Shown here: positions 2 to 63,042 of the stretch, in pieces
Layout of the letters: each line of letters begins with the position of its first letter
How positions within the stretch are numbered: position 1 is the first letter of the stretch
NCBI GenBank assembly: GCA_013153965.1
Contig: JAADDJ010000016.1
Span: forward strand, 23,530-87,529
Reading direction: 5' to 3'
DNA length: 64,000 bases
Source: Thermotogota bacterium
GTDB taxonomy: Bacteria > Hydrothermota > Hydrothermia > LBFQ01
Made by a program: the position numbers and the translations under genes
The notes under the pieces: generated by a model
Databases searched by the model: none
Seen by the model: the letters and a program-made list of their open reading frames with translations, nothing else
What the model was told of the DNA's origin: nothing

Positions 2-784
2 GCCCATGGAGTAGCCGTACTCCCCTCGGGTGAGGTTATCGTCGTCGGGAACACTTGGAATTCCGGCAACTTCGCCCCGGAGCGTAGGCTCTTCGGCACT
101 CCCGGCTACAACGATGCTTTCGTCAGCAAACTCTCGGCAAATCTCTCCGAGCATATAGCCACATCAATTCTGGCGAGCAACGCCTCCGACTACGCTCAGG
201 GCATAGCCCTATCCCCCGATGGCGTGATCGCGGTGGGGGAGGTGGGAGATGCGAGCAGCTTCGTTCCCGATAGGGTAATATTGGGCTCTCTGGGATTCTC
301 CGAGGGTTTCGCCAGTCTCCTAACACCCGACTCCCTGATGCCCGTGCGCACCGTTATCCTCGCGGGTGAGGATGTAGATGCGGCGACGGCTGTCGTGCTG
401 GGGCGCGATGGGGATCCCGTAGTGGTCGGCGCCACGGAGGATCCCTCCACCTTCCTTTCGGATAGGCTCATATTGGGAACTCCGGGTGAGAGCGATGGGT
501 TTCTGGTCAAACTGCCCCCCTACCTCTCCCTCTCGGAGGACGCCGAAGATGGAGATTTCGCCGTCCATACCGACGGCCGGCGGATCACGGTGATCCTGAG
601 GCGGCCCTCGTACGTGGGGTACGACGTCTATTCGCCCGACGGCAGACTCCTGCGCAGGGTTAGTTTGGGCTACCTGCCCCCGGGACGCCACGAGCGCGTT
701 ATGGACCTGCCCACCGGAGCGTACGTCCTGCTCTTGCGTATCGGAGAGAGCGTGGTCGTAAGACGATTTATCCATCTGCCTTAA
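2..784 (+). CDS. Secreted beta-propeller-repeat protein, C-terminal part (5' end upstream of window), with T9SS-type C-terminal sorting domain
   Basis: Frame 2 is open from the window edge to TAA 782-784. Repeated strand-end motifs (GYNDAFVSKL, GESDGFLVKL) resemble SBBP-type beta-propeller repeats. The last ~70 aa (YDVYSPDGRLLRRV...GAYVLLLRIGESVVVRRF) share a pattern with the C-termini of 2016-3440, 14463-16226 and 47683-49503. Confidence 0.6.
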   Translation, partial: AHGVAVLPSGEVIVVGNTWNSGNFAPERRLFGTPGYNDAFVSKLSANLSEHIATSILASNASDYAQGIALSPDGVIAVGEVGDASSFVPDRVILGSLGFSEGFASLLTPDSLMPVRTVILAGEDVDAATAVVLGRDGDPVVVGATEDPSTFLSDRLILGTPGESDGFLVKLPPYLSLSEDAEDGDFAVHTDGRRITVILRRPSYVGYDVYSPDGRLLRRVSLGYLPPGRHERVMDLPTGAYVLLLRIGESVVVRRFIHLP

Positions 785-787
785 AAT
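782..787 (+). promoter_or_regulatory. -10 box TAAAAT, 7 nt upstream of GTG 795 (leaderless-type)
   Basis: Sequence CCTTAAAATACCACCG-GTG. The TAA stop of the upstream CDS is the first 3 nt of the box. No SD is present. Confidence 0.5.
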
Positions 788-794
788 ACCACCG

Positions 795-1937
795 GTGGAT
801 GTTATAGACAGGTACGTCTTCTCCGGCGACGTCCATGGGGCGCTGAGAATCGCTGCAAGGAGGTTCCGACAAGACGGGGATGTTCGGGCCTTTGAGACCC
901 TCATAAACGTCCTGACCACGATGCGCAGGATAAGGAGCATCCGGAGGCTCCTCAGACGTTTCGCCGGAAACTACCCGAACTCGGAGGTCTTAGGCGTACC
1001 GGTCCATCTTCGGATGCTTCGCATTGACCGCCTTTTAAAGATTTTTCCCCGCCTTACACCCACCCAGAGGGTGTGGGTGCATGCCATATTGGGTGAGGTT
1101 CATAAAGCCAAGGAAACCGTAGAGACCTACAACGTTGAGGGCTTCGCCCGTGAGTATGTGAGGATACTGATGGGCGAGCGGCCGAGTCTGCCGCCTAAAC
1201 TCCCATACAGGATGAGTCTCCTCTACAGGGATCATCTCAAGGCCCTGTACTACGCCGTATCCGGTCTCACCGACGAGAGCGTGAGGCTATTGGAGAGCAT
1301 AACGGAGGAGTCCCTCCGCAGGGGATTCTTGGGATGGGGGATAGACGCTTCGCTCCTCAGGGGCCTTCTGGAGGGGGATCCATCCCGAATAGCCCTCGCC
1401 GGAGGGTTAGCCCGGGAGCTGGGGGACCTCCTCTCGCTCAAACTTTCGGAGATATACCTTTTACCCTTCACGGGGGTGGAGCCCACCCTCCCATCCGTTC
1501 CGAGATTTTCAATCCAGATGCGCCACGCGAGGGCGGTACGAAACGGGGAGAGGATAACCCGCCTCCCCGGAGAGCCCTTCGGATACTACGCCCTATGGTG
1601 GTACGTCTCCAAGCGGGTAAATCGGGAGACCTACCTATCGTTCGCGGGAAGGTTGAGGTTGATGGGTGGGGATAGGGAGGTGCGGGTCCAGAGGTGGAGG
1701 AGAAGCAACATAGTCCTCGCCTTCCATAAGATCTTCGGCCGGGGCGGCATCCGCTACGCCCGGATCATATTCCCCGAGAGCCCTTCGCCGGAGAGGCGGT
1801 ACAAGGAGTATCTGAGCCGACTTGGGGAGATTCAAAATGTCCCGACCGACGCCTTCATCACCCTCCGCTACGGCACCTTCCTCTCGGATGAGGAGGGCAC
1901 TTGGGCCCAGTTTCTCAAGGATAACGTGAAGGCGTAG
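795..1937 (+). CDS. Hypothetical protein with C-terminal OmpR/SARP-like winged-helix region; paralog of 63160-64000
   Basis: The C-terminal ~110 aa (YLSFAGRLRLMGGDREVRV..RRSNIVLAFHKIF..YKEYLSRL) fit the SARP/OmpR wHTH layout. They align closely with YLSFSGRLRLMRGVEEIEL..RKALVMLAFYRTV..IAEYMRYI in the minus-strand ORF at the other window edge. The helical N-terminal part has no motif I recognise. Confidence 0.55.
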   Translation: MDVIDRYVFSGDVHGALRIAARRFRQDGDVRAFETLINVLTTMRRIRSIRRLLRRFAGNYPNSEVLGVPVHLRMLRIDRLLKIFPRLTPTQRVWVHAILGEVHKAKETVETYNVEGFAREYVRILMGERPSLPPKLPYRMSLLYRDHLKALYYAVSGLTDESVRLLESITEESLRRGFLGWGIDASLLRGLLEGDPSRIALAGGLARELGDLLSLKLSEIYLLPFTGVEPTLPSVPRFSIQMRHARAVRNGERITRLPGEPFGYYALWWYVSKRVNRETYLSFAGRLRLMGGDREVRVQRWRRSNIVLAFHKIFGRGGIRYARIIFPESPSPERRYKEYLSRLGEIQNVPTDAFITLRYGTFLSDEEGTWAQFLKDNVKA

Positions 1938-2015
1938 GCCTCCGAGCGGTCCGTTGCCAGAGCATGGCAACGAGGGTTATGGGGCGGCGGTCTTCGTGAA
2001 TATCATCGTCGCAGT

Positions 2016-3440
2016 ATGAGAAAGCTGATAGCGGCGATTGCCATGGTCTTCCTCGGATTCGGGGTTGTGGAGGGGCAAACGTGCCCCTCCAGCTGCGATA
2101 CCATAACCAGCGGCTCCCAAACATTCTGCAGGTGTCTAATACATAGGTCCTCCGACACACTGGATAGGATGCAGCTGGTGACGGACGAGCCGCTCACCAT
2201 AGTTGATGTCAATGGCGACGGTCTTAGGGACATACCTTTCGGCATATGGGCCTCGGGTAGGATAGGCGCCTACGTACTGCTTCAGAGCGACAGCGGGATT
2301 CCGGGCAACTTTACCGAGGTCAAGATATCGGACACCAGCACCTACGGGATAACCGCCATAGGGGACATAAACGGGGACGGTATCCTTGACTTCGCGACGA
2401 CCACCCACTGGTCCGGCCACAAGGCCCTCATCCTCACGTCGCCGGGCTACGTGGGACCGTACAACGAGAGTCTCCTCTTCTACGATTACGACGCCATCCC
2501 CAACTCCATAACCTCAACGAGGGACCTCGTATTTTTCACCGACTATGCGGGTGCCCTAACCTACTACAATCTGCGGGATTCCTCCCTCACCCGTCTGCTT
2601 GACAGCACGAATAGGTACTGCGGGGACGGCATAGCCATAGGGGACTTCAACGGAGACGGCTACACGGATGCGGCGTGCTCCAACTATAGCGGCTCCCCCT
2701 CAAGCAGCTTCAACGGTCTGGTCGTCCATTACATAAGGCCCTTCCTTGGGACACCCCCCGAGGTCATAAGCACCGAGCCCTTCCAAGGCATCGTGGCCTA
2801 CGACTTTGACGATGACGGGGCGCCGGATATAGCCGCGGCGGGTGAGAAGGTGAGCATCTTCTACAACGAGAGAGGCAGCTGGACGGAGGTAGTTCTGGAC
2901 AGCAACTTCGCCTACAGCTCCTTCGGGATCCCCTTCAGCCGGGTCAATATAATGGACATAGACTGCGATGGGGATGTGGATATAGTGGCGGCCACCTCAT
3001 GTCCCACGGGTGATGGGGCTACCCTCGTCTGGTACGAGAATGTGGATATGAGGGCGAGGACTTGGGAGCGCCACCCGATTGAGTTCGGTGGCAACAACTG
3101 CTCCGGGGGGAGGCCCTATCCTTACGGCTTGAGGGTGGGCCTGCTGGACGAGAGAGACACCTTGGGACGGGGAGATATAGTGATCGTATGGAACGCCTCC
3201 AACGAGCTTTGGGCGTATTACAACGTATCTACGGATGCGCCCGAGTGTAAGATTCTGGGCGAGGATGATGAGCTCGCCGTAAGCGAGAGGAGAAGTTTCT
3301 CACGGGACGAGACGGTCAGCGTATTCTCCGCCGATGGCCGTAGGATCTTCCACGGCAGGTTCTCGGATGTACCCTCCCTTGGGCCGGGAGTCTATTTCGT
3401 AGTCGGCAGGGGTCATGTGGAGAAAGTGGTGGTGAAGTGA
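2016..3440 (+). CDS. FG-GAP/VCBS-repeat secreted protein with T9SS-type C-terminal sorting domain
   Basis: Signal peptide MRKLIAAIAMVFLGFGVVEG. Repeats DVNGDGLRD, GDINGDGILDF, GDFNGDGYTD, YDFDDDGAPD, MDIDCDGDVD. C-terminus VSVFSADGRRI..GVYFVVGRGHVEKVVVK. Confidence 0.75.
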   Translation: MRKLIAAIAMVFLGFGVVEGQTCPSSCDTITSGSQTFCRCLIHRSSDTLDRMQLVTDEPLTIVDVNGDGLRDIPFGIWASGRIGAYVLLQSDSGIPGNFTEVKISDTSTYGITAIGDINGDGILDFATTTHWSGHKALILTSPGYVGPYNESLLFYDYDAIPNSITSTRDLVFFTDYAGALTYYNLRDSSLTRLLDSTNRYCGDGIAIGDFNGDGYTDAACSNYSGSPSSSFNGLVVHYIRPFLGTPPEVISTEPFQGIVAYDFDDDGAPDIAAAGEKVSIFYNERGSWTEVVLDSNFAYSSFGIPFSRVNIMDIDCDGDVDIVAATSCPTGDGATLVWYENVDMRARTWERHPIEFGGNNCSGGRPYPYGLRVGLLDERDTLGRGDIVIVWNASNELWAYYNVSTDAPECKILGEDDELAVSERRSFSRDETVSVFSADGRRIFHGRFSDVPSLGPGVYFVVGRGHVEKVVVK

Positions 3441-3486: not shown

Positions 3487-3492
3487 TATAAT
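3487..3492 (+). promoter_or_regulatory. -10 box TATAAT, 6 nt upstream of GTG 3499 (leaderless-type)
   Basis: Sequence GTCTATAATTTCGGC-GTG, in frame with the RsfS ORF. Confidence 0.5.
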
Positions 3493-3498
3493 TTCGGC

Positions 3499-3837
3499 GT
3501 GCTTTCGGAGAATCTTCAGCGTATTCTGAATCTGATACGTGAGGCGGCGGGCGAGGATGTGGTCATATTGGACATACGCAAGATCAATCCGGCCATAGCA
3601 GAGTACTTCGTCATAGCCACGGGCTACACCTCGGACCACCTTCTGGATATGGCCGAGAGGCTCGTATCCGCCTTCGGCGGCAGGGTTGAGGGGGGCGAGC
3701 TCTCCTCTTGGGTTCTGGTGGATATGGGGGACGTGGTGGCCCATCTCTTCCTGCCCGATGCGAGGGCATTCTACTCCCTTGAGGAGCTCTACGGCGATGC
3801 CGACGTCGTATTCTCCGAGAAGGAGGAGATGGTGTGA
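3499..3837 (+). CDS. rsfS: Ribosomal silencing factor RsfS (iojap family)
   Basis: Motifs VVILDIRK..EYFVIATGYTSDHL..WVLVDMGDVVAHLFLPDARAFYSLEELYG. The ORF-track start 3442 would translate through the hairpin and the TATAAT box, so GTG 3499 is preferred. Confidence 0.85.
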   Translation: MLSENLQRILNLIREAAGEDVVILDIRKINPAIAEYFVIATGYTSDHLLDMAERLVSAFGGRVEGGELSSWVLVDMGDVVAHLFLPDARAFYSLEELYGDADVVFSEKEEMV

Positions 3838-5825: not shown

Positions 5826-5831
5826 TACAAT
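5826..5831 (+). promoter_or_regulatory. -10 box TACAAT, 6 nt upstream of TTG 5838 (leaderless-type)
   Basis: Sequence CCGTACAATTCCCCC-TTG. No SD is present. Confidence 0.4.
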
Positions 5832-5837
5832 TCCCCC

Positions 5838-6590
5838 TTGAAACTCCTCGGATTCTTCCGCGTGGGACCTATAGACCTGTTGGACATCGCCCTGATGACC
5901 CTCATCGTCTTTGTGGTTCTGAGGGTCCTGCGTGGCACCAAGGCCATCATCCTCCTGATGGGTGTGGGAGTCCTCCTCCTTCTGGGTTTCATAGCCGAGA
6001 GCTTGGGGTTGGTGGCTCTCGGACTCCTCATATCCGCCATAAAGGCCTTCGGTATAGTGGCTCTGATAATCCTCTTCCAGCCGGAGATAAGGCGACTCTT
6101 GATAGAGATAGGCTCCAACCCCCTCCTGCGATTCTTCCTGCCCCCGGAGAAGGTCCCCCTGAACGAGCTTCTGACGGCCATAGAGGAGATAAGGCGTCGC
6201 AAGTTGGGGGCGCTGATAATCATACAGAGGAGGGTCTCCCTTATGGAGTACGCCGAGGAGACGGGTACCATAATGGACGCGTACCTATCCGCACCCCTGT
6301 TGGTGGCCATATTCACCAAGGAGTCCCCCCTCCACGATGGGGCGGTGATAATCAAGGAGAACCGTATAGTGGCATCAACCGTTATGTTGCCCATGAGCGT
6401 GCGGATAAAGGGGGTAGGTGCCCGCCACAGGGCGGGGGCCGGTATAACCGAGGTCTCGGATGCCATCGCCATAGTCGTCTCGGAGGAGAAGGGCAGCATC
6501 ACCCTATTCCATCGCGGCGAGCCATACACCAACCTCTCCATCCCGCAGCTGAAGGGACTTTTGGAGGACCTGCTCAACTATGAAGGGTGA
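5838..6590 (+). CDS. cdaA: Diadenylate cyclase CdaA (c-di-AMP synthase)
   Basis: N-terminal TM helices are followed by DAC-domain motifs: GALIIIQR, SPLHDGAVII, GARHRAGAGITE, VVSEEKGSITL. Confidence 0.9.
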   Translation: MKLLGFFRVGPIDLLDIALMTLIVFVVLRVLRGTKAIILLMGVGVLLLLGFIAESLGLVALGLLISAIKAFGIVALIILFQPEIRRLLIEIGSNPLLRFFLPPEKVPLNELLTAIEEIRRRKLGALIIIQRRVSLMEYAEETGTIMDAYLSAPLLVAIFTKESPLHDGAVIIKENRIVASTVMLPMSVRIKGVGARHRAGAGITEVSDAIAIVVSEEKGSITLFHRGEPYTNLSIPQLKGLLEDLLNYEG

Positions 6591-9400: not shown

Positions 9401-9406
9401 TAAAAT
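9401..9406 (+). promoter_or_regulatory. -10 box TAAAAT, 8 nt upstream of TTG 9415 (leaderless-type)
   Basis: Sequence ACCTTAAAATTGGAAGTT-TTG. The ORF-track start 9406 overlaps the box itself. Confidence 0.45.
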
Positions 9407-9414
9407 TGGAAGTT

Positions 9415-10620
9415 TTGGGGAGGAAGGTCTTCTTTAAGACATTCGGATGTAGGACCAACCAGTACGATACGGAATTTTTGAAGAGTCAGATGAGGAGGTC
9501 GGGATTCTCCATCGTGGAGAGTCCGGAGGAGGCGGATACGGTAATCGTAAATTCGTGCGCCGTCACGCACAAGGCCGAGAGGGAGAGTCGGCGGGAGGTG
9601 CGCAGGCACTTGAGGAGGGGGAAAGAGGTCATATACACCGGATGTGCCGCCAAGGTCAATCCCTACGAGGAGGCCCACCTCTCCGGCTCCATGGAGGACG
9701 TCCTACGGCACTTCGGCATAGAGACGCTCTCTCCCATAGACACATTTACGAGGGCGAGGGGAATATTGAAGGTTCAGGAGGGTTGCAACTTCGTCTGCTC
9801 CTACTGCATCATACGTTTCGCCAGAGGTTCCTCAAGGTCCATACCTCTTGAGAGGATCCTACAGGACGCCGACAATCTCTCCCGAATCACCCGGGAGATA
9901 ACCCTCACCGGGACCCAGATAGGAGACTGGGGACGAGAGTGGGGCAAGGATTTGGCCTACCTCTTGGACGTCCTCACCGAGAGGTACCCGGACGTGCGAT
10001 TTCGGATATCCTCAATAAGTCCTCTGGACGTGTCCGAGAGACTTCTAAAGGTGATGGTGGAGAGGCCGAACGTCTGCCCCCACCTTCACGTCTCCGTTCA
10101 GAGTGGGAGCGACCGCGTACTGCGGGCCATGAGGAGGCCCTACACCCGCCGCCTCTACGAGGAGAAACTTCGGATGATATACTCCCACATTCCCGACATC
10201 GCCGTCGGTACGGACATCATAGTGGGGTTTCCCGGCGAGACGGAGGAGGATTTCTCCCAGACCTTAGGCCTGGTGGAGGCGTACCCCTTCGCGTACATCC
10301 ACGCCTTTGAGTACTCACCCCGTCCCGGAACTCCCGCCTACACCTTGAGGGAGGTACCGGCCCCGGTCCGCAAGCGTCGTATCCGTCGCCTTCAGGAAGT
10401 CATAGCATCCAAGCGCCGGGCCTATCGGAGGAGATTCATCGGGAAAGTTCTGAGGGCGCACGTGGAGAAGAGCGAGGATGGCCTCCTCTACGGAACGACG
10501 GAGAATTACCTGAAGGTAGCCTTTGAGGGAAATCCCGCTCTCGTCGGGAGCATCGTTCCCGTCAGGATAGTGGAGGACAGGGACACGGGAGTTTTGAACG
10601 CGCGCTTACTGCGGCTTTAA
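9415..10620 (+). CDS. mtaB: Radical-SAM methylthiotransferase, MtaB-like (MiaB/RimO family)
   Basis: Motifs KVFFKTFGCRTNQYDTE, NSCAVT, radical-SAM CNFVCSYC, and a C-terminal TRAM-like segment. An alternative start lies at 9406. Confidence 0.75.
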   Translation: MGRKVFFKTFGCRTNQYDTEFLKSQMRRSGFSIVESPEEADTVIVNSCAVTHKAERESRREVRRHLRRGKEVIYTGCAAKVNPYEEAHLSGSMEDVLRHFGIETLSPIDTFTRARGILKVQEGCNFVCSYCIIRFARGSSRSIPLERILQDADNLSRITREITLTGTQIGDWGREWGKDLAYLLDVLTERYPDVRFRISSISPLDVSERLLKVMVERPNVCPHLHVSVQSGSDRVLRAMRRPYTRRLYEEKLRMIYSHIPDIAVGTDIIVGFPGETEEDFSQTLGLVEAYPFAYIHAFEYSPRPGTPAYTLREVPAPVRKRRIRRLQEVIASKRRAYRRRFIGKVLRAHVEKSEDGLLYGTTENYLKVAFEGNPALVGSIVPVRIVEDRDTGVLNARLLRL

Positions 10621-10623
10621 AAT
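10618..10623 (+). promoter_or_regulatory. -10 box TAAAAT, 6 nt upstream of GTG 10630 (leaderless-type)
   Basis: Sequence GCTTTAAAATTCCACC-GTG. The mtaB TAA stop is the first 3 nt of the box. Confidence 0.5.
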
Positions 10624-10629
10624 TCCACC

Positions 10630-10989
10630 GTGGGGAAGATGCTGCTCAAGATGGTTCTGCCCCGCATACGGGGCATGGGGGATGTCGTTGAGGTTATTCG
10701 GGCGGTTGATAGGCTCCTGAAGGAGAGGGGGAAGGATGGCATCCTTGAGGACGTGAGTCTGATTCTGAACATGCTCAAGATGACCCTAAGGGGTGAGTAC
10801 GCCTTGGAGCGCAGGACCACATTCGCGCTCGCCGCTGCCCTCCTCTATTTCCTGATACCCACCGATGCCCTTCTGGACTACGTTCCGTTGGTGGGGTACG
10901 TTGATGATGCGGCGGTCCTCACCTACGTCCTCAACGCCTTCTCCCGGGAGTTGGAGAGATTCCGTAAGGTCAGCGGCGTTCCCGGCTGA
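10630..10989 (+). CDS. DUF1232 (YkvA-like) membrane protein
   Basis: LLYFLIPTDALLDYVPLVGYVDDAAVLTYVLN matches the DUF1232 signature as I remember it. Confidence 0.6.
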   Translation: MGKMLLKMVLPRIRGMGDVVEVIRAVDRLLKERGKDGILEDVSLILNMLKMTLRGEYALERRTTFALAAALLYFLIPTDALLDYVPLVGYVDDAAVLTYVLNAFSRELERFRKVSGVPG

Positions 10990-11285: not shown

Positions 11286-11581
11286 TCCTCCTCCGGGACG
11301 GATGTCATAGCCCCGTAGTAGTTCATCAGGGTGTCAATTATGAAGGCCCAGATCCAAGCCACTATGGACGTGAGACCGCAGGTGATGAAGCCGGCCAGAT
11401 AGAGGACCAGCTGGATGATGCCGTTGCGCTTTATGGCCTCGGGGTCCGCGTTCGGATTCTTGCCCGTGCGCTTGAGGGCCTCCGCTATCTCACGGTATGC
11501 TATGATGTGGCCGAGACCCGGAATCAGCAGGTCAAGTATCAAAACCAGTATCGCCTTATCCTTTATCTCTTTTGCCGTCAT
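11267..11581 (-). CDS. Small two-TM membrane protein (possibly TM2-like)
   Basis: Two hydrophobic segments (AILVLILDLLIPGLGHII; IIQLVLYLAGFITCGLTSIVAWIWAFII). The 3' end overlaps the convergent 10989-11285 CDS by 19 nt. Confidence 0.5.
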   Translation of the reverse strand: MTAKEIKDKAILVLILDLLIPGLGHIIAYREIAEALKRTGKNPNADPEAIKRNGIIQLVLYLAGFITCGLTSIVAWIWAFIIDTLMNYYGAMTSVPEEDQSSGG

Positions 11582-11590
11582 GATACCGGC

Positions 11591-11596
11591 ATTTTA
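11591..11596 (-). promoter_or_regulatory. -10 box TAAAAT, 9 nt upstream of ATG 11581 (leaderless-type)
   Basis: The minus strand reads AGTTAAAATGCCGGTATC-ATG. Confidence 0.45.
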
Positions 11597-12710: not shown

Positions 12711-13980
12711 AGAGCCCGAACCCCACGCTCCTCTCGTCCTCCCCGAAGGGCGCCACTATCTGAACGCCTACGAAATCTCCGAGGGGCATGTTCAAAGCGG
12801 GAACGCCTGCCAGACTGAAAGGTACGGTGAGGGTGTCAAGCCTGTAGTACTCAACCGGCGAGAAACCCGCCCCTATGGGCGGAGGAAGTACGGGATTGGT
12901 CGGAGTTATCACCACATCAACCCTCTTGAACCATCCGTCAATCTCATCTCTAACGAGACGACGCGCCTTGAGGGCCTTGAGGTAGTAAGCCTCATAGTAT
13001 CCGTGCGAGAGGACGAAGGTGCCGACCATTATTCGCCTCCTCACTTCCCTACCGAACAGGGAGCGGGTGCGCACGTACGTATCCAAGAGATCCCTACCGG
13101 GAATCCGTATCCCGTATCGCACGCCGTCGTATCTGGCGAGATTGGAGGAAGCCTCCGCCGTGGCTATCACGTAGTAGGCGGCCAGGGCGAACTCTCCGCT
13201 CTCCAGATGCAGGTCCACCACCTCGTTTCCCCTCTCCCGAAGCCTCTCAACGAACGCGAGGAACCTCTCCCTTATGGGTGGCGCCACGCCGTCCAGATGC
13301 TCCCTTACGACCCCCACGCGAAACTTTTCCTTTGAGGCGAACCTCTCGGCCTCATCGTAGGAGAAGGGGGGCAAATCCAAGGACGTGGCATCGTTGGGGT
13401 CGTACCCGGATATCACCTCCATCACCCTCGCCAGATTCACCACATCGGACGATATGGGACCGATAACGTCCAACGATGAGGCGAAGGCTATGAGCCCGAA
13501 TCTGGAGACCCGGCCGTAGGTGGGTTTCAGCCCCCAAACGTTGCAGAAGGCGGCCGGGAGCCTTATGGAGCCTCCCGTATCGCTTCCCAAGGCCACCGGT
13601 ACCGTACCGGAGCCCACCAGAGCGGCGGAGCCGGAGGAGGAGCCTCCGGGAACCAGCTCGGGAGCGTGGGGATTCTTCGTCGGACCGAAGGCGGAATTCT
13701 CACCCGTTGAGCCCATGGCGAACTCGTCCAGATTGCTCTTGGCCACGATCACAGCCCCCGCCTCCTTGAGTTTCCGCACGACGGTGGCGTCGTAGGGGGG
13801 GATGTAATTCTCCAGAATCTTTGATGCGGCGGTCGTCCGAATGCCGGCCGTTAAGATGTTGTCCTTCACGGCTATCGGCATCCCCGCGAGGGGGCCGTCC
13901 TTCGGCTCCTCATCCACGTCAGGTACGGTTATGACGGCGTTGAGGGGATCCTCCCTCAAGGCGGCGAGAAGGTCTCTCAT
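12691..13980 (-). CDS. gatA: Glutamyl-tRNA(Gln) amidotransferase subunit A
   Basis: Motifs GPLAGMPIAVKDN, NLDEFAMGSTGENSAFG, GGSSSGSAALV, GSDTGGSIRLPAAFC. The start is set at MRDLLAALRED. The longer track ORF (to 14682) runs antisense through mscL. Confidence 0.9.
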   Translation of the reverse strand: MRDLLAALREDPLNAVITVPDVDEEPKDGPLAGMPIAVKDNILTAGIRTTAASKILENYIPPYDATVVRKLKEAGAVIVAKSNLDEFAMGSTGENSAFGPTKNPHAPELVPGGSSSGSAALVGSGTVPVALGSDTGGSIRLPAAFCNVWGLKPTYGRVSRFGLIAFASSLDVIGPISSDVVNLARVMEVISGYDPNDATSLDLPPFSYDEAERFASKEKFRVGVVREHLDGVAPPIRERFLAFVERLRERGNEVVDLHLESGEFALAAYYVIATAEASSNLARYDGVRYGIRIPGRDLLDTYVRTRSLFGREVRRRIMVGTFVLSHGYYEAYYLKALKARRLVRDEIDGWFKRVDVVITPTNPVLPPPIGAGFSPVEYYRLDTLTVPFSLAGVPALNMPLGDFVGVQIVAPFGEDERSVGFGLYASRAL

Positions 13981-13989
13981 CCACCGGCT

Positions 13990-13995
13990 ATTATA
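13990..13995 (-). promoter_or_regulatory. -10 box TATAAT, 9 nt upstream of gatA ATG 13980 (leaderless-type)
   Basis: The minus strand reads GGCTATAATAGCCGGTGG-ATG. Confidence 0.5.
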
Positions 13996-14023: not shown

Positions 14024-14029
14024 TAAAAT
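14024..14029 (+). promoter_or_regulatory. -10 box TAAAAT, 8 nt upstream of mscL ATG 14038 (leaderless-type)
   Basis: Sequence CCGTAAAATACCCGGCT-ATG. Confidence 0.5.
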
Positions 14030-14037
14030 ACCCGGCT

Positions 14038-14466
14038 ATGTTGAAGGAATTCATAAACTTCATAAAGCGCGGCAACGTTCTGGATATGGCCATCGGTATC
14101 GTAATTGGGATGGCCTTCGGAGCCGTGGTGAAGTCCTTCGTGGATAACATTCTCATGCCCCCCATAGGTCTCCTTCTCGGCGGTACCGACTTCACCAACC
14201 TCTTCATAGTCCTCAAGCCCGGAGATCCCCCCGGACCCTATCCCACGCTTGAGGCCGCCCGTGAGGCTGGGGCCGTGGTATGGTCCATAGGTCTCTTCAT
14301 AAATGCGGTGGTCAATTTCCTGATAATAGCCCTCGCCGTCTTCCTCGTCGTGAAGGCCGTCTCCCCTCTCTTTAAGAAGAAGGAGGAGAAACCTGCCGCT
14401 CCGCCCGAGCCTCCGGAGGAGATCAAGCTCCTGCGTGAGATTCGCGACGCCCTGAAGAACCGCTAA
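14038..14466 (+). CDS. mscL: Large-conductance mechanosensitive channel
   Basis: MLKEFINFIKRGNVLDMAIGIVIGMAFGAVVKSFVDNILMPPIG is a near-canonical MscL N-terminus. A second TM helix and a charged tail follow. Confidence 0.9.
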   Translation: MLKEFINFIKRGNVLDMAIGIVIGMAFGAVVKSFVDNILMPPIGLLLGGTDFTNLFIVLKPGDPPGPYPTLEAAREAGAVVWSIGLFINAVVNFLIIALAVFLVVKAVSPLFKKKEEKPAAPPEPPEEIKLLREIRDALKNR

Positions 14467-16226: not shown

Positions 16227-16232
16227 ACGGTA

Positions 16233-16238
16233 ATTTTA
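16233..16238 (-). promoter_or_regulatory. -10 box TAAAAT, 6 nt upstream of ATG 16226 (leaderless-type)
   Basis: The minus strand reads CCACCTTAAAATTACCGT-ATG. An in-frame TAA inside the box rules out a longer N-terminus. Confidence 0.5.
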
Positions 16239-16311: not shown

Positions 16312-16317
16312 TATAAT
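16312..16317 (+). promoter_or_regulatory. -10 box TATAAT, 11 nt upstream of thiE ATG 16329
   Basis: Sequence GTCGTATAATCCCTTACTTGA-ATG. No SD and no TPP-riboswitch-like sequence appear in the 102-nt spacer. Confidence 0.45.
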
Positions 16318-16328
16318 CCCTTACTTGA

Positions 16329-16946
16329 ATGCTCGGGAGACTGTACGTTATTTTGGATGATGCCTACCTTTCCCCCGAGAGGACGCCCGAGGTCGCGAGG
16401 CAGGTGATAGAGGGTGGGGCGGACCTGATTCAGCTCAGGGCGAAGAGGTGGGATATTCCGACTCTCAAGGCGGTGGCCGATGAGGTGTTCGCCCTCACCC
16501 GTAGGGCTGGAATTCCGCTGATAATAAACGACCACGTTGAGGTGGCATCCAACTACGACGGCGTGCATATAGGGGAGGAGGATACCCCCTACGCCGTAGC
16601 CCGAGAGATTCTGGGAGAGAAGAGGATAGTGGGAGTGTCGTGCTACGACTCCCTTGAGAGGGCCCTAAGGTTGCAGGAGGAGGGGGCCCAATACGTGGCC
16701 TTTTCCTCACCCTACCCTTCACCCACCAAACCCGACAAGCGATTCGCCCCTCTGGACCTCATCGCGGAAGCCGCCCGCAGGTTGAGGATACCCTTCTACG
16801 TCATAGGGGGGATAGACGTGGAGCGAGCGGCCGAGCTCCGGCGAGCCGGGGCCTACGGTATAGCCGTGGTCAGTGCGGTTCTGCTCGCCTCCGATCCCCG
16901 GGAGGCCACAAGGAGGTTGCGAAATGCGATATACGGCTCTCCTTAG
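16329..16946 (+). CDS. thiE: Thiamine-phosphate synthase
   Basis: Motifs LYVILDD..GADLIQLRAK..IPLIINDHVEVA..DGVHIGEED..VGVSC..YVAF..IPFYVIGGI. Confidence 0.85.
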   Translation: MLGRLYVILDDAYLSPERTPEVARQVIEGGADLIQLRAKRWDIPTLKAVADEVFALTRRAGIPLIINDHVEVASNYDGVHIGEEDTPYAVAREILGEKRIVGVSCYDSLERALRLQEEGAQYVAFSSPYPSPTKPDKRFAPLDLIAEAARRLRIPFYVIGGIDVERAAELRRAGAYGIAVVSAVLLASDPREATRRLRNAIYGSP

Positions 16947-47668: not shown

Positions 47669-47674
47669 TAAAAT
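47669..47674 (+). promoter_or_regulatory. -10 box TAAAAT, 8 nt upstream of ATG 47683 (leaderless-type)
   Basis: Sequence GGCGTAAAATACGAACCT-ATG. No in-frame alternative start lies upstream (TAA at 47608). Confidence 0.5.
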
Positions 47675-47682
47675 ACGAACCT

Positions 47683-49503
47683 ATGCTCTCAATACTGGTA
47701 GCAGGTACGATTCTTTACGAGGGATTTGAGACCTCGGTCCCTCCCGCCGGATGGGAGGTTCTGGATCTCGGTAGCGCTACGGGAGATTCGTGGTATCAGA
47801 CTATGACCAAAGCCCACTCGGGCACCTACTCCGCCAAGGTCACCTACTATCCATCCACCAACACGAAGGACGAGTGGCTCATAACGCCGGCCGTGGACCT
47901 CTCAACCGCCACGAAGGCTTACCTGATATTCTACGAGGATCAGGATTACTGGTCGGGCTACGGGGAGCACCACCAGATCCTAATATCTACCACTTCGCAG
48001 ACGGACACATCAACCTTCACGCTGGTACTTGACATGACACCGACGGACCACACGATAAACGGCTTTGACGGGGATCCTATGATCGTGGATATCTCGGACT
48101 TCGTGGGGAATTCAACCGTCTATATCGCCTTCCGATACACCGGGCTTGATGCCGACAACTGGTACTTGGACGACGTGGAGATATACACCCCCTACAACAC
48201 CGACGCGAAGCCCATGGCTTTGGTTGAGCCTTCGGAGTACGTATCGGGCAGCTTTACCCCGGTGGTGCGGGTACAGAACTACGGTCTGGACACACTAAAT
48301 TCCATTCCCGTACGGCTTATTCTGATGGATCCCTACGGGAACGTGGCCTACGACCAAACGGCCACCGTCTCCGGAGCCTTGGGGTCTATGGACACGGCCT
48401 CGGTGTCCTTCCCGTCATTTACACCCGACAGTCGCTTCTACTACCAGTATCTGGTGATTACGGAGCTCCCCGGTGATGAGAATCCCTCCAACGACACCCT
48501 GAGCGGGTACATATACGCGTACGACAGACCGATGATGGTCCTGTTTGAGAGATTCACGCAGCACAACTGCGGTCCCTGCGCCTCCGCGGACCCCTATCAG
48601 CTGTCCATATACTCCTCCCACGTGGATGCGGAAAATTACAACATCGGCATGATAACCTACCAGACGTGGTGGCCGGGGGCCAACAACGACCCCTTCTACC
48701 ACTACGACACCATGCCGCAGCGCAACAGGGTACTCTACTACAAGGTGAATGCGGTCCCATGGGTCTATATAAACGGCGTGGTCAATGCGTCGTATTACTA
48801 CACCCAGTGGGCGAGCCTCGTGTCCTCCGAGGAGAGCTACCGGACCACACCTCTGGAGTTCTCCTTTGATACGAGCAACAGCCTCCTGTACGAGGATTCG
48901 CTGGGAATACACGGACGCCTAACCCTATCCGCCACACAGGTCGGGGCCATGCTATCCAAAGAGTACAGACTGAGGGTGGTGATAGTGCAGGACAGCGTAT
49001 ATTACAACGCCCCCAACGGCAGCACCTTCCACGTGATGAAGTTCAGGCATTGGATAGACACCTCATTCACGGCCGGAGACACGGGTAGCATCCACACCTA
49101 CACGTTTGACTTCTTCCTGCCTCACCCGGTATGGACGAGCGATCCCGGTCTGGACGTCCATCACATGGTGGCCGTCGCCTTCATCCAGAGCGACGATGAT
49201 CAGAAGGTCTGGGGCGTGGGCACCTTTAACTTCAAGAACGTGGTCTCCGTCGCCGAGAGACCCGGCGGTGGCGACGTGTGGCTGGTCAAGGTCATATCCA
49301 CGAGAGGTGGCATAGACATCTTCTCCTCCGAGGAGAGGGATGCCGAGCTGTCCGTCTTTACCGTGTCCGGTCGCCGGGTGCTAAGCGACGTCTTCAAGGT
49401 CTCCGGCGAGACCCACTACCGCCTCAACCTACCCAAGGGCGCGTACTTCTACAGGCTTAGAATAGGAAGCAGGACATGGTACGGAAAGGTGTTGGTATTC
49501 TGA
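47683..49503 (+). CDS. T9SS-sorted multidomain surface protein: choice-of-anchor-J-like, CARDB-like, thioredoxin-fold CGPC domain, C-terminal sorting domain
   Basis: Domain motifs in order: GFETSVPPAGWEV..SGTYSAKV..DEWLITP..NWYLDDVEIY, then VRVQNYGLDTLNSIPVRL..NPSNDTL, then VLFERFTQHNCGPCASA. C-terminus LSVFTVSGRRV..GAYFYRLRIGSRTWYGKVLVF. Confidence 0.65.
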   Translation: MLSILVAGTILYEGFETSVPPAGWEVLDLGSATGDSWYQTMTKAHSGTYSAKVTYYPSTNTKDEWLITPAVDLSTATKAYLIFYEDQDYWSGYGEHHQILISTTSQTDTSTFTLVLDMTPTDHTINGFDGDPMIVDISDFVGNSTVYIAFRYTGLDADNWYLDDVEIYTPYNTDAKPMALVEPSEYVSGSFTPVVRVQNYGLDTLNSIPVRLILMDPYGNVAYDQTATVSGALGSMDTASVSFPSFTPDSRFYYQYLVITELPGDENPSNDTLSGYIYAYDRPMMVLFERFTQHNCGPCASADPYQLSIYSSHVDAENYNIGMITYQTWWPGANNDPFYHYDTMPQRNRVLYYKVNAVPWVYINGVVNASYYYTQWASLVSSEESYRTTPLEFSFDTSNSLLYEDSLGIHGRLTLSATQVGAMLSKEYRLRVVIVQDSVYYNAPNGSTFHVMKFRHWIDTSFTAGDTGSIHTYTFDFFLPHPVWTSDPGLDVHHMVAVAFIQSDDDQKVWGVGTFNFKNVVSVAERPGGGDVWLVKVISTRGGIDIFSSEERDAELSVFTVSGRRVLSDVFKVSGETHYRLNLPKGAYFYRLRIGSRTWYGKVLVF

Positions 49504-52247: not shown

Positions 52248-52253
52248 TAGAAT
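52248..52253 (+). promoter_or_regulatory. -10 box TAGAAT, 10 nt upstream of ATG 52264
   Basis: Sequence GCCTTAGAATACCTCCCGCC-ATG. Confidence 0.45.
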
Positions 52254-52263
52254 ACCTCCCGCC

Positions 52264-53334
52264 ATGAGCAGGAAGGTTCAGTTCCCGGCTATAGGTAAGA
52301 TTTCGCCGGAGTTCTTTGACGAGTACATCTTCCCATACCTTGGGGCCAAGCGGGAGGAGGTCATCGTACCTCCCCAGCACGGCGTTGATACCGGCGTGGT
52401 GCGCATAGGCAACGGGAAGGTGCTCGTATTCACCACCGACCCCATATACATACTCCCGGCCTACGGTTGGGAGAAGGCGGCCTGGTTCGCTTGGCACATA
52501 CTCGCCTCGGACGTGGCCACGTCCGGTTTTCCCCCCACCTACATAACCGCCGACTTCAACCTACCCATGGAGATAACCGAGGAGGAGTTCGCCACCGTCT
52601 GGAAGGTGTGGGACAGGGAGAGCAAGAAGTACGGCGCCGCAGTCGTGGCCGGCCACACGGCCCGGTATCCCGGGACCGCCTATCCGATGGTGGGAGGGGC
52701 CACCTTCATCGCCCTGGCCGACGAGGACAAGTACCTGACACCCAAGATGGCCCGTCCCGGCGACGCCCTGATCATCACGAAGGGGCCCGCCGTGGAGGCT
52801 ACGGGGATATTCGCCAGCCTATTCCCCAACTACATCTCCGAGAAGTTGGGACCGGAGATAGCCGAGCAGGGTCAGAGGCTCTTCTACAAGATGAGCACCG
52901 TGGATGACGCCCTGACGGCCGTCTCCGTAGGCTACAGGGATGAGGGCGTTCGGGCCATGCACGACGCCACCGAGTGCGGGATTCTGGGAGGCATATACGA
53001 GCTGGCCGAAGCGTCCGGCGTGGGCGTGATATACCACAAGGACCGAACGCCCATCCAACCCGGCGTTCTGGAGATAACCTCCCTCTTCGGCATGGAGCCC
53101 TTCTCCTCCATCAGCGAGGGAACGCTGATAATGGCGGTGGTACCCGACAAGGCGGACGAGGTCGTTAGCCGGCTCAAGGAGAGAGGGATAGACGCCGCCG
53201 TAGTCGGCGAATTCCTCCCCAAGGAGAAGGGAATGTGGGTTGTTGAGGGAGGCAGGAGGAAGCCTCTGGAGCACCCGAGGGTGGATCCCTTCTGGTCCGC
53301 GATTGACAGGGCACTCTCCGAGGGGTTGAGTTGA
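52264..53334 (+). CDS. AIR-synthase-related (PurM/HypE/ThiL superfamily) protein
   Basis: Motifs GVDTGVVRIG..VFTTDP..HILASDVATSGFPP..VVAGHTARYPG, and a C-terminal domain with HDATECGILGGIYELA. Confidence 0.65.
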   Translation: MSRKVQFPAIGKISPEFFDEYIFPYLGAKREEVIVPPQHGVDTGVVRIGNGKVLVFTTDPIYILPAYGWEKAAWFAWHILASDVATSGFPPTYITADFNLPMEITEEEFATVWKVWDRESKKYGAAVVAGHTARYPGTAYPMVGGATFIALADEDKYLTPKMARPGDALIITKGPAVEATGIFASLFPNYISEKLGPEIAEQGQRLFYKMSTVDDALTAVSVGYRDEGVRAMHDATECGILGGIYELAEASGVGVIYHKDRTPIQPGVLEITSLFGMEPFSSISEGTLIMAVVPDKADEVVSRLKERGIDAAVVGEFLPKEKGMWVVEGGRRKPLEHPRVDPFWSAIDRALSEGLS

Positions 53335-53507: not shown

Positions 53508-53513
53508 TATAAT
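53508..53513 (+). promoter_or_regulatory. -10 box TATAAT, 13 nt upstream of tRNA-Lys
   Basis: GGCGTATAATACAGACTTCAGGT precedes the tRNA 5' end at 53527. Confidence 0.5.
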
Positions 53514-53526
53514 ACAGACTTCAGGT

Positions 53527-53599
53527 GGGCCGTTAGCTCAGTTGGCAGAGCACCGGATTTTTAATCCGGGGGTCGCAGGTTCGATCCCTGCACGGCCCA
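53527..53599 (+). tRNA. trnK: tRNA-Lys (anticodon UUU)
   Basis: Acceptor GGGCCGT/ACGGCCC, D arm GCTC-AGTTGGCA-GAGC, anticodon arm CCGGA-TTTTTAA-TCCGG, T arm GCAGG-TTCGATC-CCTGC, discriminator A. No CCA is encoded. Confidence 0.9.
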
Positions 53600-53601
53600 T
53601 T

Positions 53602-54876
53602 TTGTCTTTCATAGTAGTGCGCGGAGGAAAGCCCTTAGAGGGAAAGGTTCGCATAAGCGGGGCCAAGAATGCCGCCCTCGCCATACTACCCGCCACGATC
53701 GTAGTTAGGGGGGAGGTGAAGGTAGCCAACGCTCCGAGAGTGGCGGACGTTGAGACGATGGTCAATCTGTTGGCGGAGCTGGGTGCCGAGGCGCGGCGGG
53801 AGGAGGACGGTACGGTGGTGTTATCAACGGATGGACTCAACACCTACGAGGCCCCTTACGAGTACGTGAGCCGAATGAGGGCATCCATATACGTTCTTGG
53901 CCCCCTTCTGGCGAGGTTCGGAAGGGCAAAGGTGGCTCTTCCGGGCGGTTGCGCCTTCGGTCCCCGTCCCATAAACTTCCACATATACGCCCTCCAGTCC
54001 ATGGGGGCGAAGGTGTGGGTGGAGCACGGATACGTTATGGCGGAGGCTCCCCAAGGTCTCAGGGGAACCACGATAGCCTTTGAGAGGAAGTCGGTGGGAG
54101 CCACCATCCACACCATGATAACGGCCATACTGGCCGAGGGCGAGACGACGATAGAGAACGCGGCCATAGAGCCGGAGGTCGTGGATGTGGCCCACTTCCT
54201 GCGGCGATGTGGAGCCCGCATAGAGGGAGAGGGGACGGATAGGGTCGTGGTGGAGGGTAGAGGGAGGGACGGATTCCTGAAGGCCTGCTCCCACTACGCC
54301 GTCATTCCAGACAGGATAGAGACAGCCACCTTCCTGATAGCAGGCTTGATAACCCGTGGAAGGGTTGAGATAGAGGGAGCCCTCCCCGAGCATCTCACGG
54401 CCGTGTTGAACAAACTTCGGGAGGCGGGGGCGAAGATGGAGGTGAATGAGGACAGGATAGTCGTCCTACCGTCCGGCAGATTGCAGGGGAGGGACGTGGA
54501 GACGGCCCCCTACCCCGGCTTCCCCACGGACGTTCAACCCATGTACATGGCTCTGATGAGTGTGGCTAAGGGTGTGAGTGTCATAAGGGAGGGGATATAC
54601 CCCGACAGATTCAAGCACGCGTACGAGCTCATGAGGCTCGGAGCGAGCATAGATGTGGGAGATGGCTACGCCGTCGTTAAGGGGGTGAATAGGCTCACAG
54701 GGGCACCGGTGATGGGTACGGACCTGCGGGGTACGGCCGCTTTGGTCCTCGCCGGTCTGGTGGCGGAGGGAGAGACGGCCGTGGGTGGATACTCCCACCT
54801 GGCGCGGGGTTATGAGAACTTCATCGGAAAGATGAGGGGATTGGGAGCCCAGATATCCCTCAAGAACAGTCTCTGA
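53602..54876 (+). CDS. murA: UDP-N-acetylglucosamine 1-carboxyvinyltransferase
   Basis: (M)SFIVVRGGKPLEGKVRISGAKNAALAILPA and active-site LPGGCAFGPRPINFH. The start is set at TTG 53602 because the track ORF (53542) runs through tRNA-Lys. GTG 53617 is an alternative. Confidence 0.88.
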   Translation: MSFIVVRGGKPLEGKVRISGAKNAALAILPATIVVRGEVKVANAPRVADVETMVNLLAELGAEARREEDGTVVLSTDGLNTYEAPYEYVSRMRASIYVLGPLLARFGRAKVALPGGCAFGPRPINFHIYALQSMGAKVWVEHGYVMAEAPQGLRGTTIAFERKSVGATIHTMITAILAEGETTIENAAIEPEVVDVAHFLRRCGARIEGEGTDRVVVEGRGRDGFLKACSHYAVIPDRIETATFLIAGLITRGRVEIEGALPEHLTAVLNKLREAGAKMEVNEDRIVVLPSGRLQGRDVETAPYPGFPTDVQPMYMALMSVAKGVSVIREGIYPDRFKHAYELMRLGASIDVGDGYAVVKGVNRLTGAPVMGTDLRGTAALVLAGLVAEGETAVGGYSHLARGYENFIGKMRGLGAQISLKNSL

Positions 54877-54980: not shown

Positions 54981-54986
54981 ATTATA
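54981..54986 (-). promoter_or_regulatory. -10 box TATAAT, 11 nt upstream of tRNA-Glu
   Basis: The minus strand reads CCCTTATAATACTCACCCAAC, then the tRNA 5' end at 54969. It lies in the 41-nt spacer after the rplX stop. Confidence 0.45.
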
Positions 54987-62078: not shown

Positions 62079-62084
62079 ATTCTA
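62079..62084 (-). promoter_or_regulatory. Second candidate -10 box (TAGAAT) upstream of tuf
   Basis: The minus strand reads CCGCCTTAGAATACACG, followed by the hairpin CCAACCCC-GGGA-GGGGGTTTGG. Confidence 0.3.
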
Positions 62085-62121
62085 AGGCGGAAGGGGACGA
62101 TTTGGGAGCCTTTTTAGCGCA

Positions 62122-63027
62122 TCATCGGAGGTTGGTCTCCCCCATCACCTCCTCGTACGTCGGGGCGTAAGCGCCCAGTCGGGAGACGGTTATTGAGGCG
62201 GCCTTGGAGGCTATCTCACCAGTCCTCTTCCAATCGTACCCCCGGAGGCGGGCCCATACCACCCAAGCCAGAACCGTGTCGCCGGCTCCGGTTATATCTA
62301 TAACGTCCCTCTTGAGGGCCGGAATGTAGAACTCCCCCTCGTTGGACACGATCCACATTCCCCTATCGCCCATGGTTGAGACCACCGCTCCGACCCCCAG
62401 CCTCTCGTAGGCCCTCTCCGTCGCCTCGCGCACCTCGTCTATATCCTCCAGAGGCATGTTCATGGCCTTCCGCAGCTCGCTCAAGTTGGGTTTGACTATG
62501 TCAAACCCTCCGGACTTCCAGAAGAGGGACTTGGGGTCTATCGCCTTCAGGGAATTGGGGAAATTGTCCTTCACGAAGTCCAGAGTCTCCTCAATCACGG
62601 TCCCCTTGTCGTAGTTGGAGACTATCACCGCGTCGTAGTCCCTTACCCTCACCATATCCAGCAGAGCCAGAGCCTCCTCCCGAAGGAACTTCTCCTCGTA
62701 GTCTATACGCAGGACGTGATGATACTTGGACAGGAGGCGGGTCTTCTTTAGGGTGCGCAGTTTGCTCCTATAGAAGCGGGGGACGATATTCACGCTCTGG
62801 CACAGCAGCTCCACCTCCTCGCCGTCGCTGTCCTCCCCCACTATCCCGTAAAGATACACCTGAACGCCCAGACGGGCCAGATTCAGGGCGACGTTGGCCG
62901 CCCCCCCGGGGAGGAACTTGCTGCTGACGTAGTGGAAGACGGGAACGGGAGCCTCCGGAGATATACGCTCCACCTTTCCGAAGGCGTACTCGTCCAACAT
63001 CACGTCCCCGATAACGGCTATCCTCAT
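62122..63027 (-). CDS. hldA: D-glycero-beta-D-manno-heptose-7-phosphate kinase-like (PfkB family, RfaE domain I type)
   Basis: MRIAVIGDVMLDEYAFGKVERISPEAPVPV..GGAANVALNLARLG and C-terminal DITGAGDTV. No adenylyltransferase domain is attached. Confidence 0.65.
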   Translation of the reverse strand: MRIAVIGDVMLDEYAFGKVERISPEAPVPVFHYVSSKFLPGGAANVALNLARLGVQVYLYGIVGEDSDGEEVELLCQSVNIVPRFYRSKLRTLKKTRLLSKYHHVLRIDYEEKFLREEALALLDMVRVRDYDAVIVSNYDKGTVIEETLDFVKDNFPNSLKAIDPKSLFWKSGGFDIVKPNLSELRKAMNMPLEDIDEVREATERAYERLGVGAVVSTMGDRGMWIVSNEGEFYIPALKRDVIDITGAGDTVLAWVVWARLRGYDWKRTGEIASKAASITVSRLGAYAPTYEEVMGETNLR

Positions 63028-63036
63028 CGGAGGTCC

Positions 63037-63042
63037 ATTTTA
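63037..63042 (-). promoter_or_regulatory. -10 box TAAAAT, 9 nt upstream of ATG 63027 (leaderless-type)
   Basis: The minus strand reads GTCCTTAAAATGGACCTCCG-ATG. Confidence 0.45.

Follow-up and report, generated by a model that had tools for sequence, protein, structure and literature searches.

Promoter boxes abutting start codons point to widespread leaderless mRNAs in a bacterium of the candidate phylum WOR-3

Our analysis of a 64,000-nucleotide stretch of contig JAADDJ010000016.1 (the window, by which we mean the whole stretch) concerns the hexamer TAnAAT, which lies just upstream of the start codons of many genes that head operons. We consider it highly probable that this box is a -10 promoter element abutting the start codon, an arrangement that would yield leaderless mRNAs at most promoters. 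The sample consists of this single 64-kb stretch and roughly 0.3 Mb from related loci. The window has a G+C content of 58% and encodes rpoB and rpoC, ribosomal-protein clusters, tuf and three tRNAs.

An earlier note on the window had reported the box 6-11 nucleotides (nt) upstream of the start at about 18 operon heads, none with a Shine-Dalgarno (SD) sequence. All 18 coordinates hold. A perfect TAnAAT precedes 18/18 listed starts with a hexamer-to-start spacer of 6-11 nt (Table 1), and 0/18 have a match of at least 4 nt to AAGGAGGTGA at spacing 3-12. The note was also right that rplM, ptrB and tuf carry strong SD motifs (AAGGAGG, GGAGGT and AAGGAGGT, respectively), and that at two sites the TAA stop of the upstream gene lies within the box, of which it forms the first three bases (782-784 and 10618-10620).

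The placement of the box, rather than its abundance, is what sets it apart. The hexamer has no overall enrichment in the window, with 41 copies of TANAAT compared to 51.7 +/- 7.0 in shuffles. However, the start of an open reading frame (ORF) of at least 100 codons lies 5-12 nt 3' of 21/41 copies (51%), compared to 283/2421 (11.7%) when the same sequence is scanned with 59 permuted control motifs, of which the top-scoring are shifted versions of the real box. A comparison of box-to-start placement with controls had been set beforehand, in the earlier note, as one test of its claim. In a curated table of 62 genes, the box lies 6-12 nt upstream in 19 cases, whereas about 0.16 would be expected by chance (41 boxes per 128,000 strand positions, an 8-nt window and 62 gene starts). 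The placement of the box near starts is not due to chance.

Aligning the 18 sites on the hexamer reveals further conserved positions. Counted from the hexamer, a C stands exactly 6 nt upstream in 16/18 sites and a T at -1 in 9/18, with T or A at -7 and an A followed by a C downstream, which gives the fuller consensus (T/A)C-N4-T-TAnAAT-A. The CCTT or GCGT context described in the earlier note is better expressed as this C at -6 and T at -1, and the A said usually to follow the box is found at only 9/18 sites. The C at -6 recurs in 9/10 other boxes in promoter position, including all three tRNA promoters, and so in 25/28 overall. The sequence CNNNNNTANAAT occurs 28 times compared to 15.0 +/- 4.1 expected, a count that 0/100 shuffles reach, and 25/28 copies lie upstream of a gene or tRNA.

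Judged by its sequence, TAnAAT is the -10 element of a housekeeping sigma-70-type promoter and not an mRNA signal. The invariant T(-12), A(-11) and T(-7) of the sigma-70 -10 hexamer are present in the box. Leadered genes and tRNA genes share the motif with the 18 listed genes, and it therefore marks transcription rather than ribosome binding; a tRNA is not translated and so cannot need a translation signal. The TG of classical extended -10 promoters does not appear in the box consensus. No -35 element emerged from a two-hexamer scan of positions 1-20000, which gave 9 sites compared to 7.1 +/- 2.4 expected and included only one listed box (10618), and the aligned sites have no information content at -30 to -40. 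Two divergent promoter pairs are packed back to back, with 28 nt (13990-14029) and 16 nt (44518-44545) between their -10 hexamers, so that the upstream region of each promoter is the spacer or coding start of the other. This tight packing fits promoters that do not need a -35 element.

Could the box instead act in translation, as a non-SD ribosome-binding site or a ribosomal protein S1-binding enhancer of the ‘group B’ type, on transcripts that start further upstream? The type IX secretion system (T9SS) domains encoded in the window tie the organism to the Fibrobacteres-Chlorobi-Bacteroidetes (FCB) group, whose members mostly have non-SD signals (PMC6028130), and as in those genomes many genes lack an SD. 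The box-to-start distance overlaps the usual SD spacing, and 10/18 genes follow closely behind a same-strand gene. We nevertheless regard this alternative as extremely improbable. Three tRNA genes have this extended motif in front of them, and so, at a distance of 30-100 nt, do genes with a strong SD of their own; the invariant T and A and the final T are those by which sigma-70 recognizes a -10 element; and the conserved C is at least 12 nt upstream of the spacer. Group B motifs precede all genes, operon-internal ones included (PMC6028130), and would be missing from non-coding genes, whereas this A/T-rich motif is restricted to operon heads and tRNAs and is not found at overlapping operon-internal genes. 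Also unlike the Bacteroidota/FCB pattern, internal and ribosomal-protein genes of the window have a strong canonical SD (AAGGAGGT). Finally, the intergenic spaces of divergent pairs, 57-102 nt long, contain one box per strand and no other promoter-like site.

Operon position separates the two kinds of start. The box is 6-11 nt from the start in 7/8 divergent heads (genes with an opposite-strand upstream neighbor), and the eighth has a box, a leader and an SD. In the 62-gene table, box-bearing genes occupy head positions, the non-divergent ones mostly after a gap of at least 24 nt. No gene that overlaps its upstream neighbor has a box at 6-11 nt, and 49476, with its box at 12 nt, is the sole overlapping box gene and an ambiguous one. 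Another 33 genes are preceded by an SD of 4-8 nt. The earlier note had assigned strong GGAGG motifs to operon-internal genes, which is only partly true: 13 genes have neither box nor SD, and 8/13 of these overlap the stop of the upstream gene.

We propose the following model. At about 70% of the promoters recognizable in the window, the hexamer is 6-9 nt (at most 11) from the start codon, and RNA polymerase would begin on the first base of that codon (A, G or U) or 1-4 nt upstream of it. Such an mRNA would have no room for an SD and would enter the leaderless pathway, in which a 70S ribosome with initiation factor 2 binds the 5'-terminal start codon. Downstream genes of the same units would be translated from strong SDs or by overlap-coupled reinitiation, and a minority of heads (rplM, ptrB, tuf and the secE cluster) would use the same promoter with a 30-100 nt leader and an SD.

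The distances and the base preceding the start codon are consistent with this model. In sigma-70 promoters, the -10 hexamer is canonically about 6-8 nt from +1, and transcription starts favor a pyrimidine at -1 and a purine at +1. Across 87 extended-box sites pooled from the window and its relatives, the spacer distribution peaks at 6-9 nt, with a mode of 8. The base at -1 of the start codon is a pyrimidine in 70/87 cases (80%) compared to 9/23 SD-led starts, as fits an A or G of the codon serving as +1 under that preference. We infer that the transcription start coincides with the start codon (0 nt) or falls 1-4 nt upstream; the 10-11 nt spacers (52264 and 16329) probably give leaders of 2-4 nt. 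The leaderless interpretation already offered in the earlier note is thus favored by the boxes at tRNA and leadered genes, the restriction to heads, the -1 pyrimidine, the related genomes and those GTG and TTG starts for which orthologs were available.

The best relatives of the window’s SpoIID-domain protein (53-59% identical) are encoded in metagenome-assembled genomes labeled candidate division WOR-3 and Candidatus Caldipriscus, and the T9SS sorting domains in window proteins point to the FCB neighborhood. The single WOR-3 strain in culture, sy37, groups with Caldipriscus and has a G+C content of 60.6% (PMC12285271). These affinities assign the organism, an uncultured bacterium of hot environments, to the Caldipriscus/sy37 cluster of WOR-3. 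An exact-match protein look-up with the window’s isocitrate dehydrogenase gave no hit. Apart from rsfS and its neighbor at 3834 in L006, the 16 WOR-3 loci compared (L001-L016) have nothing but the query gene in common with the window; because there is so little synteny, we relied on pooled statistics and targeted orthologs instead of aligned intergenic regions.

In the closest WOR-3 loci (L001-L007, G+C 41-57%), 67 boxes lie 5-12 nt before a long ORF, again with a spacer mode of 8 nt, and 54/67 have the C at -6. With the near-duplicate L004 left out, the C is present in 46/57 ORF-adjacent boxes (81%) compared to 29/149 other TANAAT copies (19%). The SpoIID ortholog has a box 5-8 nt from its start in 7/7 of these relatives. 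On gene calls made by other pipelines, 15/20 genes of L133 have a box at a distance of 5-13 nt, and 9/18 genes of L138, 8/21 of L139 and 11/20 of L140 have one at 5-12 nt. The C-extended motif adjoins an ORF start for 40-89% of boxes in close-relative loci and for 19% in L136/L137, compared to 0-12% in nine other WOR-3 loci (L008-L016, including Candidatus Hydrothermus). The box-centered test is diluted in AT-rich genomes, but repeating it with the C-extended motif still gave no signal in L008-L016. The plain-box test gave no excess in Bacteroidota, Acidobacteriota or Luteimonas loci. The layout is thus clade-specific within WOR-3, present in Caldipriscus-type loci and absent from Hydrothermae-type loci.

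A second rival reading is that the listed starts might have been picked to fit the box, with the true starts upstream or at a downstream SD and the proximity in part an annotation artifact. The earlier note did not take the longest ORF at 3499, 9415, 13980 and 14038, gatA is about 26 residues shorter from 13980 than solved GatA proteins, and an ATG lies three codons downstream of 10630. We think this very unlikely. The test that is independent of start choice still gives 51% compared to 11.7%, family profiles align from residues 1-9 of the proposed box-gene proteins, no box gene has a downstream candidate start with an SD at a conserved position, and gene calls by other pipelines give the same picture in relatives. 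In sequence alignments, profiles and orthologs agree with the starts of rsfS, cdaA, mtaB, mscL, thiE and others.

Orthologs fix several starts directly, that of the SpoIID-like gene among them. The rsfS ortholog in L006 (71% identical) also has TATAAT, 6 nt, then GTG, and the same length of 112 amino acids (aa). Thirteen cdaA homologs (59-86% identity) begin with MK[LV][LF]GF at the codon corresponding to TTG 5838; in L133/L134 the gene is a divergent head with TACAAT, 6 nt and the TTG retained, and in L136/L137 it is inside an operon with GTG at the same codon. For mtaB, neither ATG nor GTG occurs from the upstream stop to the conserved KTFGC cluster-binding motif. Its ortholog in L053 (73% identical) has TACAAT, 8 nt and TTG with a different spacer sequence, and those in L054/L062 have TATAAT, 10 nt and an ATG one codon later. 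Sequence comparison with orthologs therefore confirms TTG for mtaB and cdaA and GTG for rsfS, and the earlier note’s GTG and TTG starts stand for these three genes, although not yet for GTG 795 and GTG 10630, whose orthologs were not found in any related locus examined.

The earlier note’s remark that leaderless GTG and TTG starts would be unusual is overstated. The 87 pooled box sites have 64 ATG, 13 GTG and 10 TTG starts (74/15/11%), compared to 79% AUG, 10% GUG and 6% UUG among predicted leaderless genes across prokaryotes, and in mycobacterial leaderless mRNAs GUG is about as common as AUG (PMC8459731). GTG starts are unremarkable here, and TTG is somewhat frequent but not unprecedented.

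Several observations weigh against the leaderless model. The missing orthologs at 795 and 10630 belong here, as does gatA (12691-13980, minus strand), whose start lacks ortholog confirmation: from ATG 13980, its only plausible start, the protein has about 26 fewer N-terminal residues than solved GatA structures. We considered and rejected a longer gatA; translating its frame further upstream yields nothing similar to GatA, and this frame overlaps the 5' end of mscL on the opposite strand. The spacer mode of 8 nt exceeds the canonical hexamer-to-+1 distance of 6 nt by 1-2 nt, so many transcripts may carry leaders of 1-3 nt, and in model systems such leaders reduce translation (PMC8459731). Over their first 36 nt, box genes fold no less than other genes do (mean -5.4 compared to -5.9 kcal/mol, p = 0.62), a result that gives no support either way. 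Lastly, 10/18 box genes are only 9-31 nt behind a same-strand gene with no terminator between, and at these ten sites read-through transcripts probably coexist with those from the box.

This last point could be taken further: the boxes might be weak or secondary promoters, with protein made mostly from read-through transcripts via termination-reinitiation or 70S scanning and leaderless translation minor. The two boxes that contain the upstream stop leave no place for a terminator, and intrinsic-terminator-like sites are not enriched (14 compared to 12.8 expected in positions 1-20000). On the other hand, seven sites are divergent heads with no upstream same-strand transcript, cdaA keeps its box and TTG in the divergent context of L133/L134, and the box, its spacing and the -1 pyrimidine are conserved across genomes, which argues for selection on the promoter-start arrangement. 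We give this explanation a small chance and retain the leaderless model.

At murA, the start codon adjoins a tRNA gene instead of a box. The gene begins with a TTG 2 nt after tRNA-Lys, which does not encode its CCA and has its own box promoter (Table 1). With TTG 53602, profile positions 1-416 match residues 1-420, and only with this start does the alignment run from residue 1; the existing gene call starts at GTG 53617, 5 residues short, and that alternative GTG is GTC in L138. There is no promoter or SD between tRNA-Lys and murA, and no TA dinucleotide occurs in the final 15 nt of the tRNA. The junction is kept in L138 (9926-10003), L139 (9928-10003) and L140 (9925-10003), whose MurA proteins are 80, 65 and 62% identical to that of the window. 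The start is always TTG, and the gap, 2 nt in the window, measures 2, 0 and 3 nt in these loci, respectively. More distant loci have no tRNA at murA.

Two further junctions occur in relatives. A tRNA-Ser(UGA) lies 4-5 nt before the ATG of a conserved 122-aa ORF in L139 (20419-20512) and L140 (20543-20637), and a tRNA-Arg(CCG) lies 2-3 nt before the ATG of an AMP-binding acyl-CoA-synthetase-like gene in L136 (8248-8327) and L137 (8244-8324), where that gene heads the cdaA operon. Both tRNAs have a TAnAAT box upstream. On the simplest reading, a near-leaderless mRNA would be released at these junctions by tRNA 3' processing; for tRNA-Lys, which encodes no CCA, one expects an endonucleolytic 3' cut behind the discriminator base. 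When we searched the literature for leaderless mRNAs punctuated by tRNAs in bacteria, only mitochondrial papers came up. The arrangement shares with mitochondrial tRNA punctuation that the tRNA adjoins the next start codon (0-3 nt for tRNA-Lys/murA) and leaves no room for a promoter or SD. It differs in that it is found in a free-living bacterium, involves single tRNA-gene pairs and not a whole polycistron, and has a UUG start at murA.

Table 1. Boxes of the window and the starts, tRNAs or leadered genes behind them. Distances run from the end of the hexamer; C(-6) marks a C 6 nt upstream of the hexamer.
Box	Position	Strand	Distance	Start	Gene or feature
TAAAAT (782-787; TAA = stop of upstream gene)	782..797	+	7 nt	GTG 795	hypothetical protein, 380 aa
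TATCAT (degenerate; TC at -7/-6)	2001..2018	+	9 nt	ATG 2016	FG-GAP protein (Pfam); candidate extra member, inference only
TATAAT	3487..3501	+	6 nt	GTG 3499	rsfS (ribosome silencing factor); profile 2-99 = residues 6-98
TACAAT	5826..5840	+	6 nt	TTG 5838	cdaA (diadenylate cyclase)
TAAAAT	9401..9417	+	8 nt	TTG 9415	mtaB (methylthiotransferase)
TAAAAT (TAA = mtaB stop)	10618..10632	+	6 nt	GTG 10630	DUF1232 protein; candidate alternative ATG 10639
TAAAAT	11579..11596	-	9 nt	ATG 11581	hypothetical protein, 104 aa
TATAAT	13978..13995	-	9 nt	ATG 13980	gatA, divergent from mscL
TAAAAT	14024..14040	+	8 nt	ATG 14038	mscL; residues 1-142 = profile positions 3-141
TAAAAT	16224..16238	-	6 nt	ATG 16226	SpoIID-domain protein (gene 14463-16226)
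TATAAT	16312..16331	+	11 nt (longest spacer)	ATG 16329	thiE
TAGAAT	17672..17687	+	7 nt	ATG 17685	sugar-1-phosphate nucleotidyltransferase
TAGAAT	20597..20614	-	9 nt	ATG 20599	NAD(P)H-hydrate epimerase/dehydratase
TATAAT	21366..21382	-	8 nt	ATG 21368	sufC
TAAAAT	21454..21471	+	9 nt	ATG 21469	isocitrate dehydrogenase
TATAAT, C(-6)	37440..37445	-	33 nt to tRNA-Trp (37406-37332)		leadered promoter of tRNA-Trp, secE, nusG, rplKAJL cluster
TATAAT, C(-6)	39979..39984	-	~39 nt	GTG 39939	leadered promoter of rplM; SD AAGGAGG
TAAAAT, C(-6)	44518..44523	-	8 nt; ~47 nt	in-frame TTG 44509; SD-led ATG 44470	ptrB
TAGAAT	44540..44554	+	6 nt	ATG 44552	hypothetical protein, weak PorQ-like match
TAAAAT	47669..47685	+	8 nt	ATG 47683	T9SS-sorted protein
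TAGAAT, C(-6)	49458..49478	+	12 nt	ATG 49476	candidate internal promoter within 3' end of upstream gene
TAGAAT	52248..52266	+	10 nt	ATG 52264	AIR-synthase-like protein
TATAAT (53508-53513)	53508..53604	+	12 nt to tRNA-Lys(UUU) (53527-53599, no encoded CCA), then 2 nt	TTG 53602	tRNA-Lys promoter; murA
TATAAT, C(-6)	54981..54986	-	10 nt to tRNA-Glu (54970-54894)		tRNA-Glu promoter
TATAAT, C(-6); TAGAAT, C(-6)	62025-62020; 62084-62079	-	48 nt; 107 nt	ATG 61971	leadered tuf promoters; SD AAGGAGGT
TAAAAT	63025..63042	-	9 nt	ATG 63027	heptose-7-phosphate kinase-like protein

Beyond the 18 listed genes, the starts at 2016, 49476 and murA 53602 are likely further members. Among the leadered heads, ptrB has two possible starts 13 codons apart, a leaderless-type TTG (44509) and an SD-led ATG (44470), and both may be in use. 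An Rfam scan of the window found the three tRNAs alone, and no known leader or riboswitch for the leadered heads or for the gap before the B12-dependent ribonucleotide reductase gene (nrdJ-type, ATG 42380). That gap, 131 nt long (42381-42511, minus strand), has no TAnAAT, SD or Rfam match. The best classical promoter of the window (TTGAAA, 18 nt, TAAAAT at 63115, C at -6) lies at 63091-63166 on the plus strand, with a second TAAAAT at 63161; it faces a convergent minus-strand gene (63160-63999), which it enters at the 3' end. A plus-strand ORF of 267 aa (63124-63927) is antisense to that gene, and neither product has a Pfam match; the arrangement could represent an antisense RNA, a small RNA or a mis-called strand.

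A promoter abutting the start codon is well known in Deinococcus and actinobacteria. In the group C genomes of GeneMarkS-2, which include 90% of Actinobacteria and 97% of Deinococcus-Thermus genomes, the leading gene of an operon has a Pribnow box at about 10 nt and the other genes have SDs (PMC6028130). Zheng et al. (2011) gave the same reading to TA-led genes, in which TANNNT lies about 12 bp upstream of the start, counted from the first T (PMC3160421). The window resembles these genomes (Deinococcus deserti, D. radiodurans, Mycobacterium, Streptomyces, Corynebacterium) in having a -10 motif about 6-10 nt before first genes that lack an SD, SDs on internal or leadered genes, and a dominant AUG with some GUG (PMC6028130, PMC3160421, PMC4007540). 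As in D. deserti, there is no detectable -35 element (PMC4007540). However, the hexamer is a full TAnAAT with invariant A at positions 4-5, unlike the TAnnnT of the high-GC groups, and it has an extra conserved C 6 nt and T 1 nt upstream; TTG makes up about 11% of box-associated starts. The box is found at 40-75% of called genes in close relatives, compared to a predicted >20% to ~30% in Actinobacteria and Deinococcus-Thermus (PMC3160421). The lineage, candidate phylum WOR-3, also differs from known group C members, and a literature search found no paper linking WOR-3 with leaderless mRNAs. We therefore appear to be looking at a known architecture, of the group C or D. deserti-like type, in a new lineage.

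Taken together, these observations allow a broader proposal, which we advance only tentatively: Caldipriscus/sy37-type WOR-3 may be among the bacteria most dependent on leaderless translation, for about half of genes and most promoters. Two routes would contribute, a -35-less promoter, marked by a lineage-specific C about 6 nt upstream of the hexamer, firing onto AUG, GUG or (unusually often, in roughly 10%) UUG, and tRNA processing (tRNA-Lys/murA in four genomes, tRNA-Ser in two and tRNA-Arg in two). Where a gene caller presupposes an SD, starts in these genomes will be misplaced, as with the murA call and one cdaA homolog called 19 residues short, and recognizing the clade as group C type corrects such calls. 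The conserved C and the missing -35 element raise a testable question about sigma and RNA polymerase contacts, and the tRNA-abutted starts make bacterial tRNA punctuation testable, given that a cultured relative, sy37, exists (PMC12285271). The finding would add a thermophilic candidate phylum, deep-branching and close to the FCB group, to the lineages with leaderless-dominated expression, and the variation within WOR-3 offers a natural contrast for studying what drives the gain and loss of leaderless initiation.

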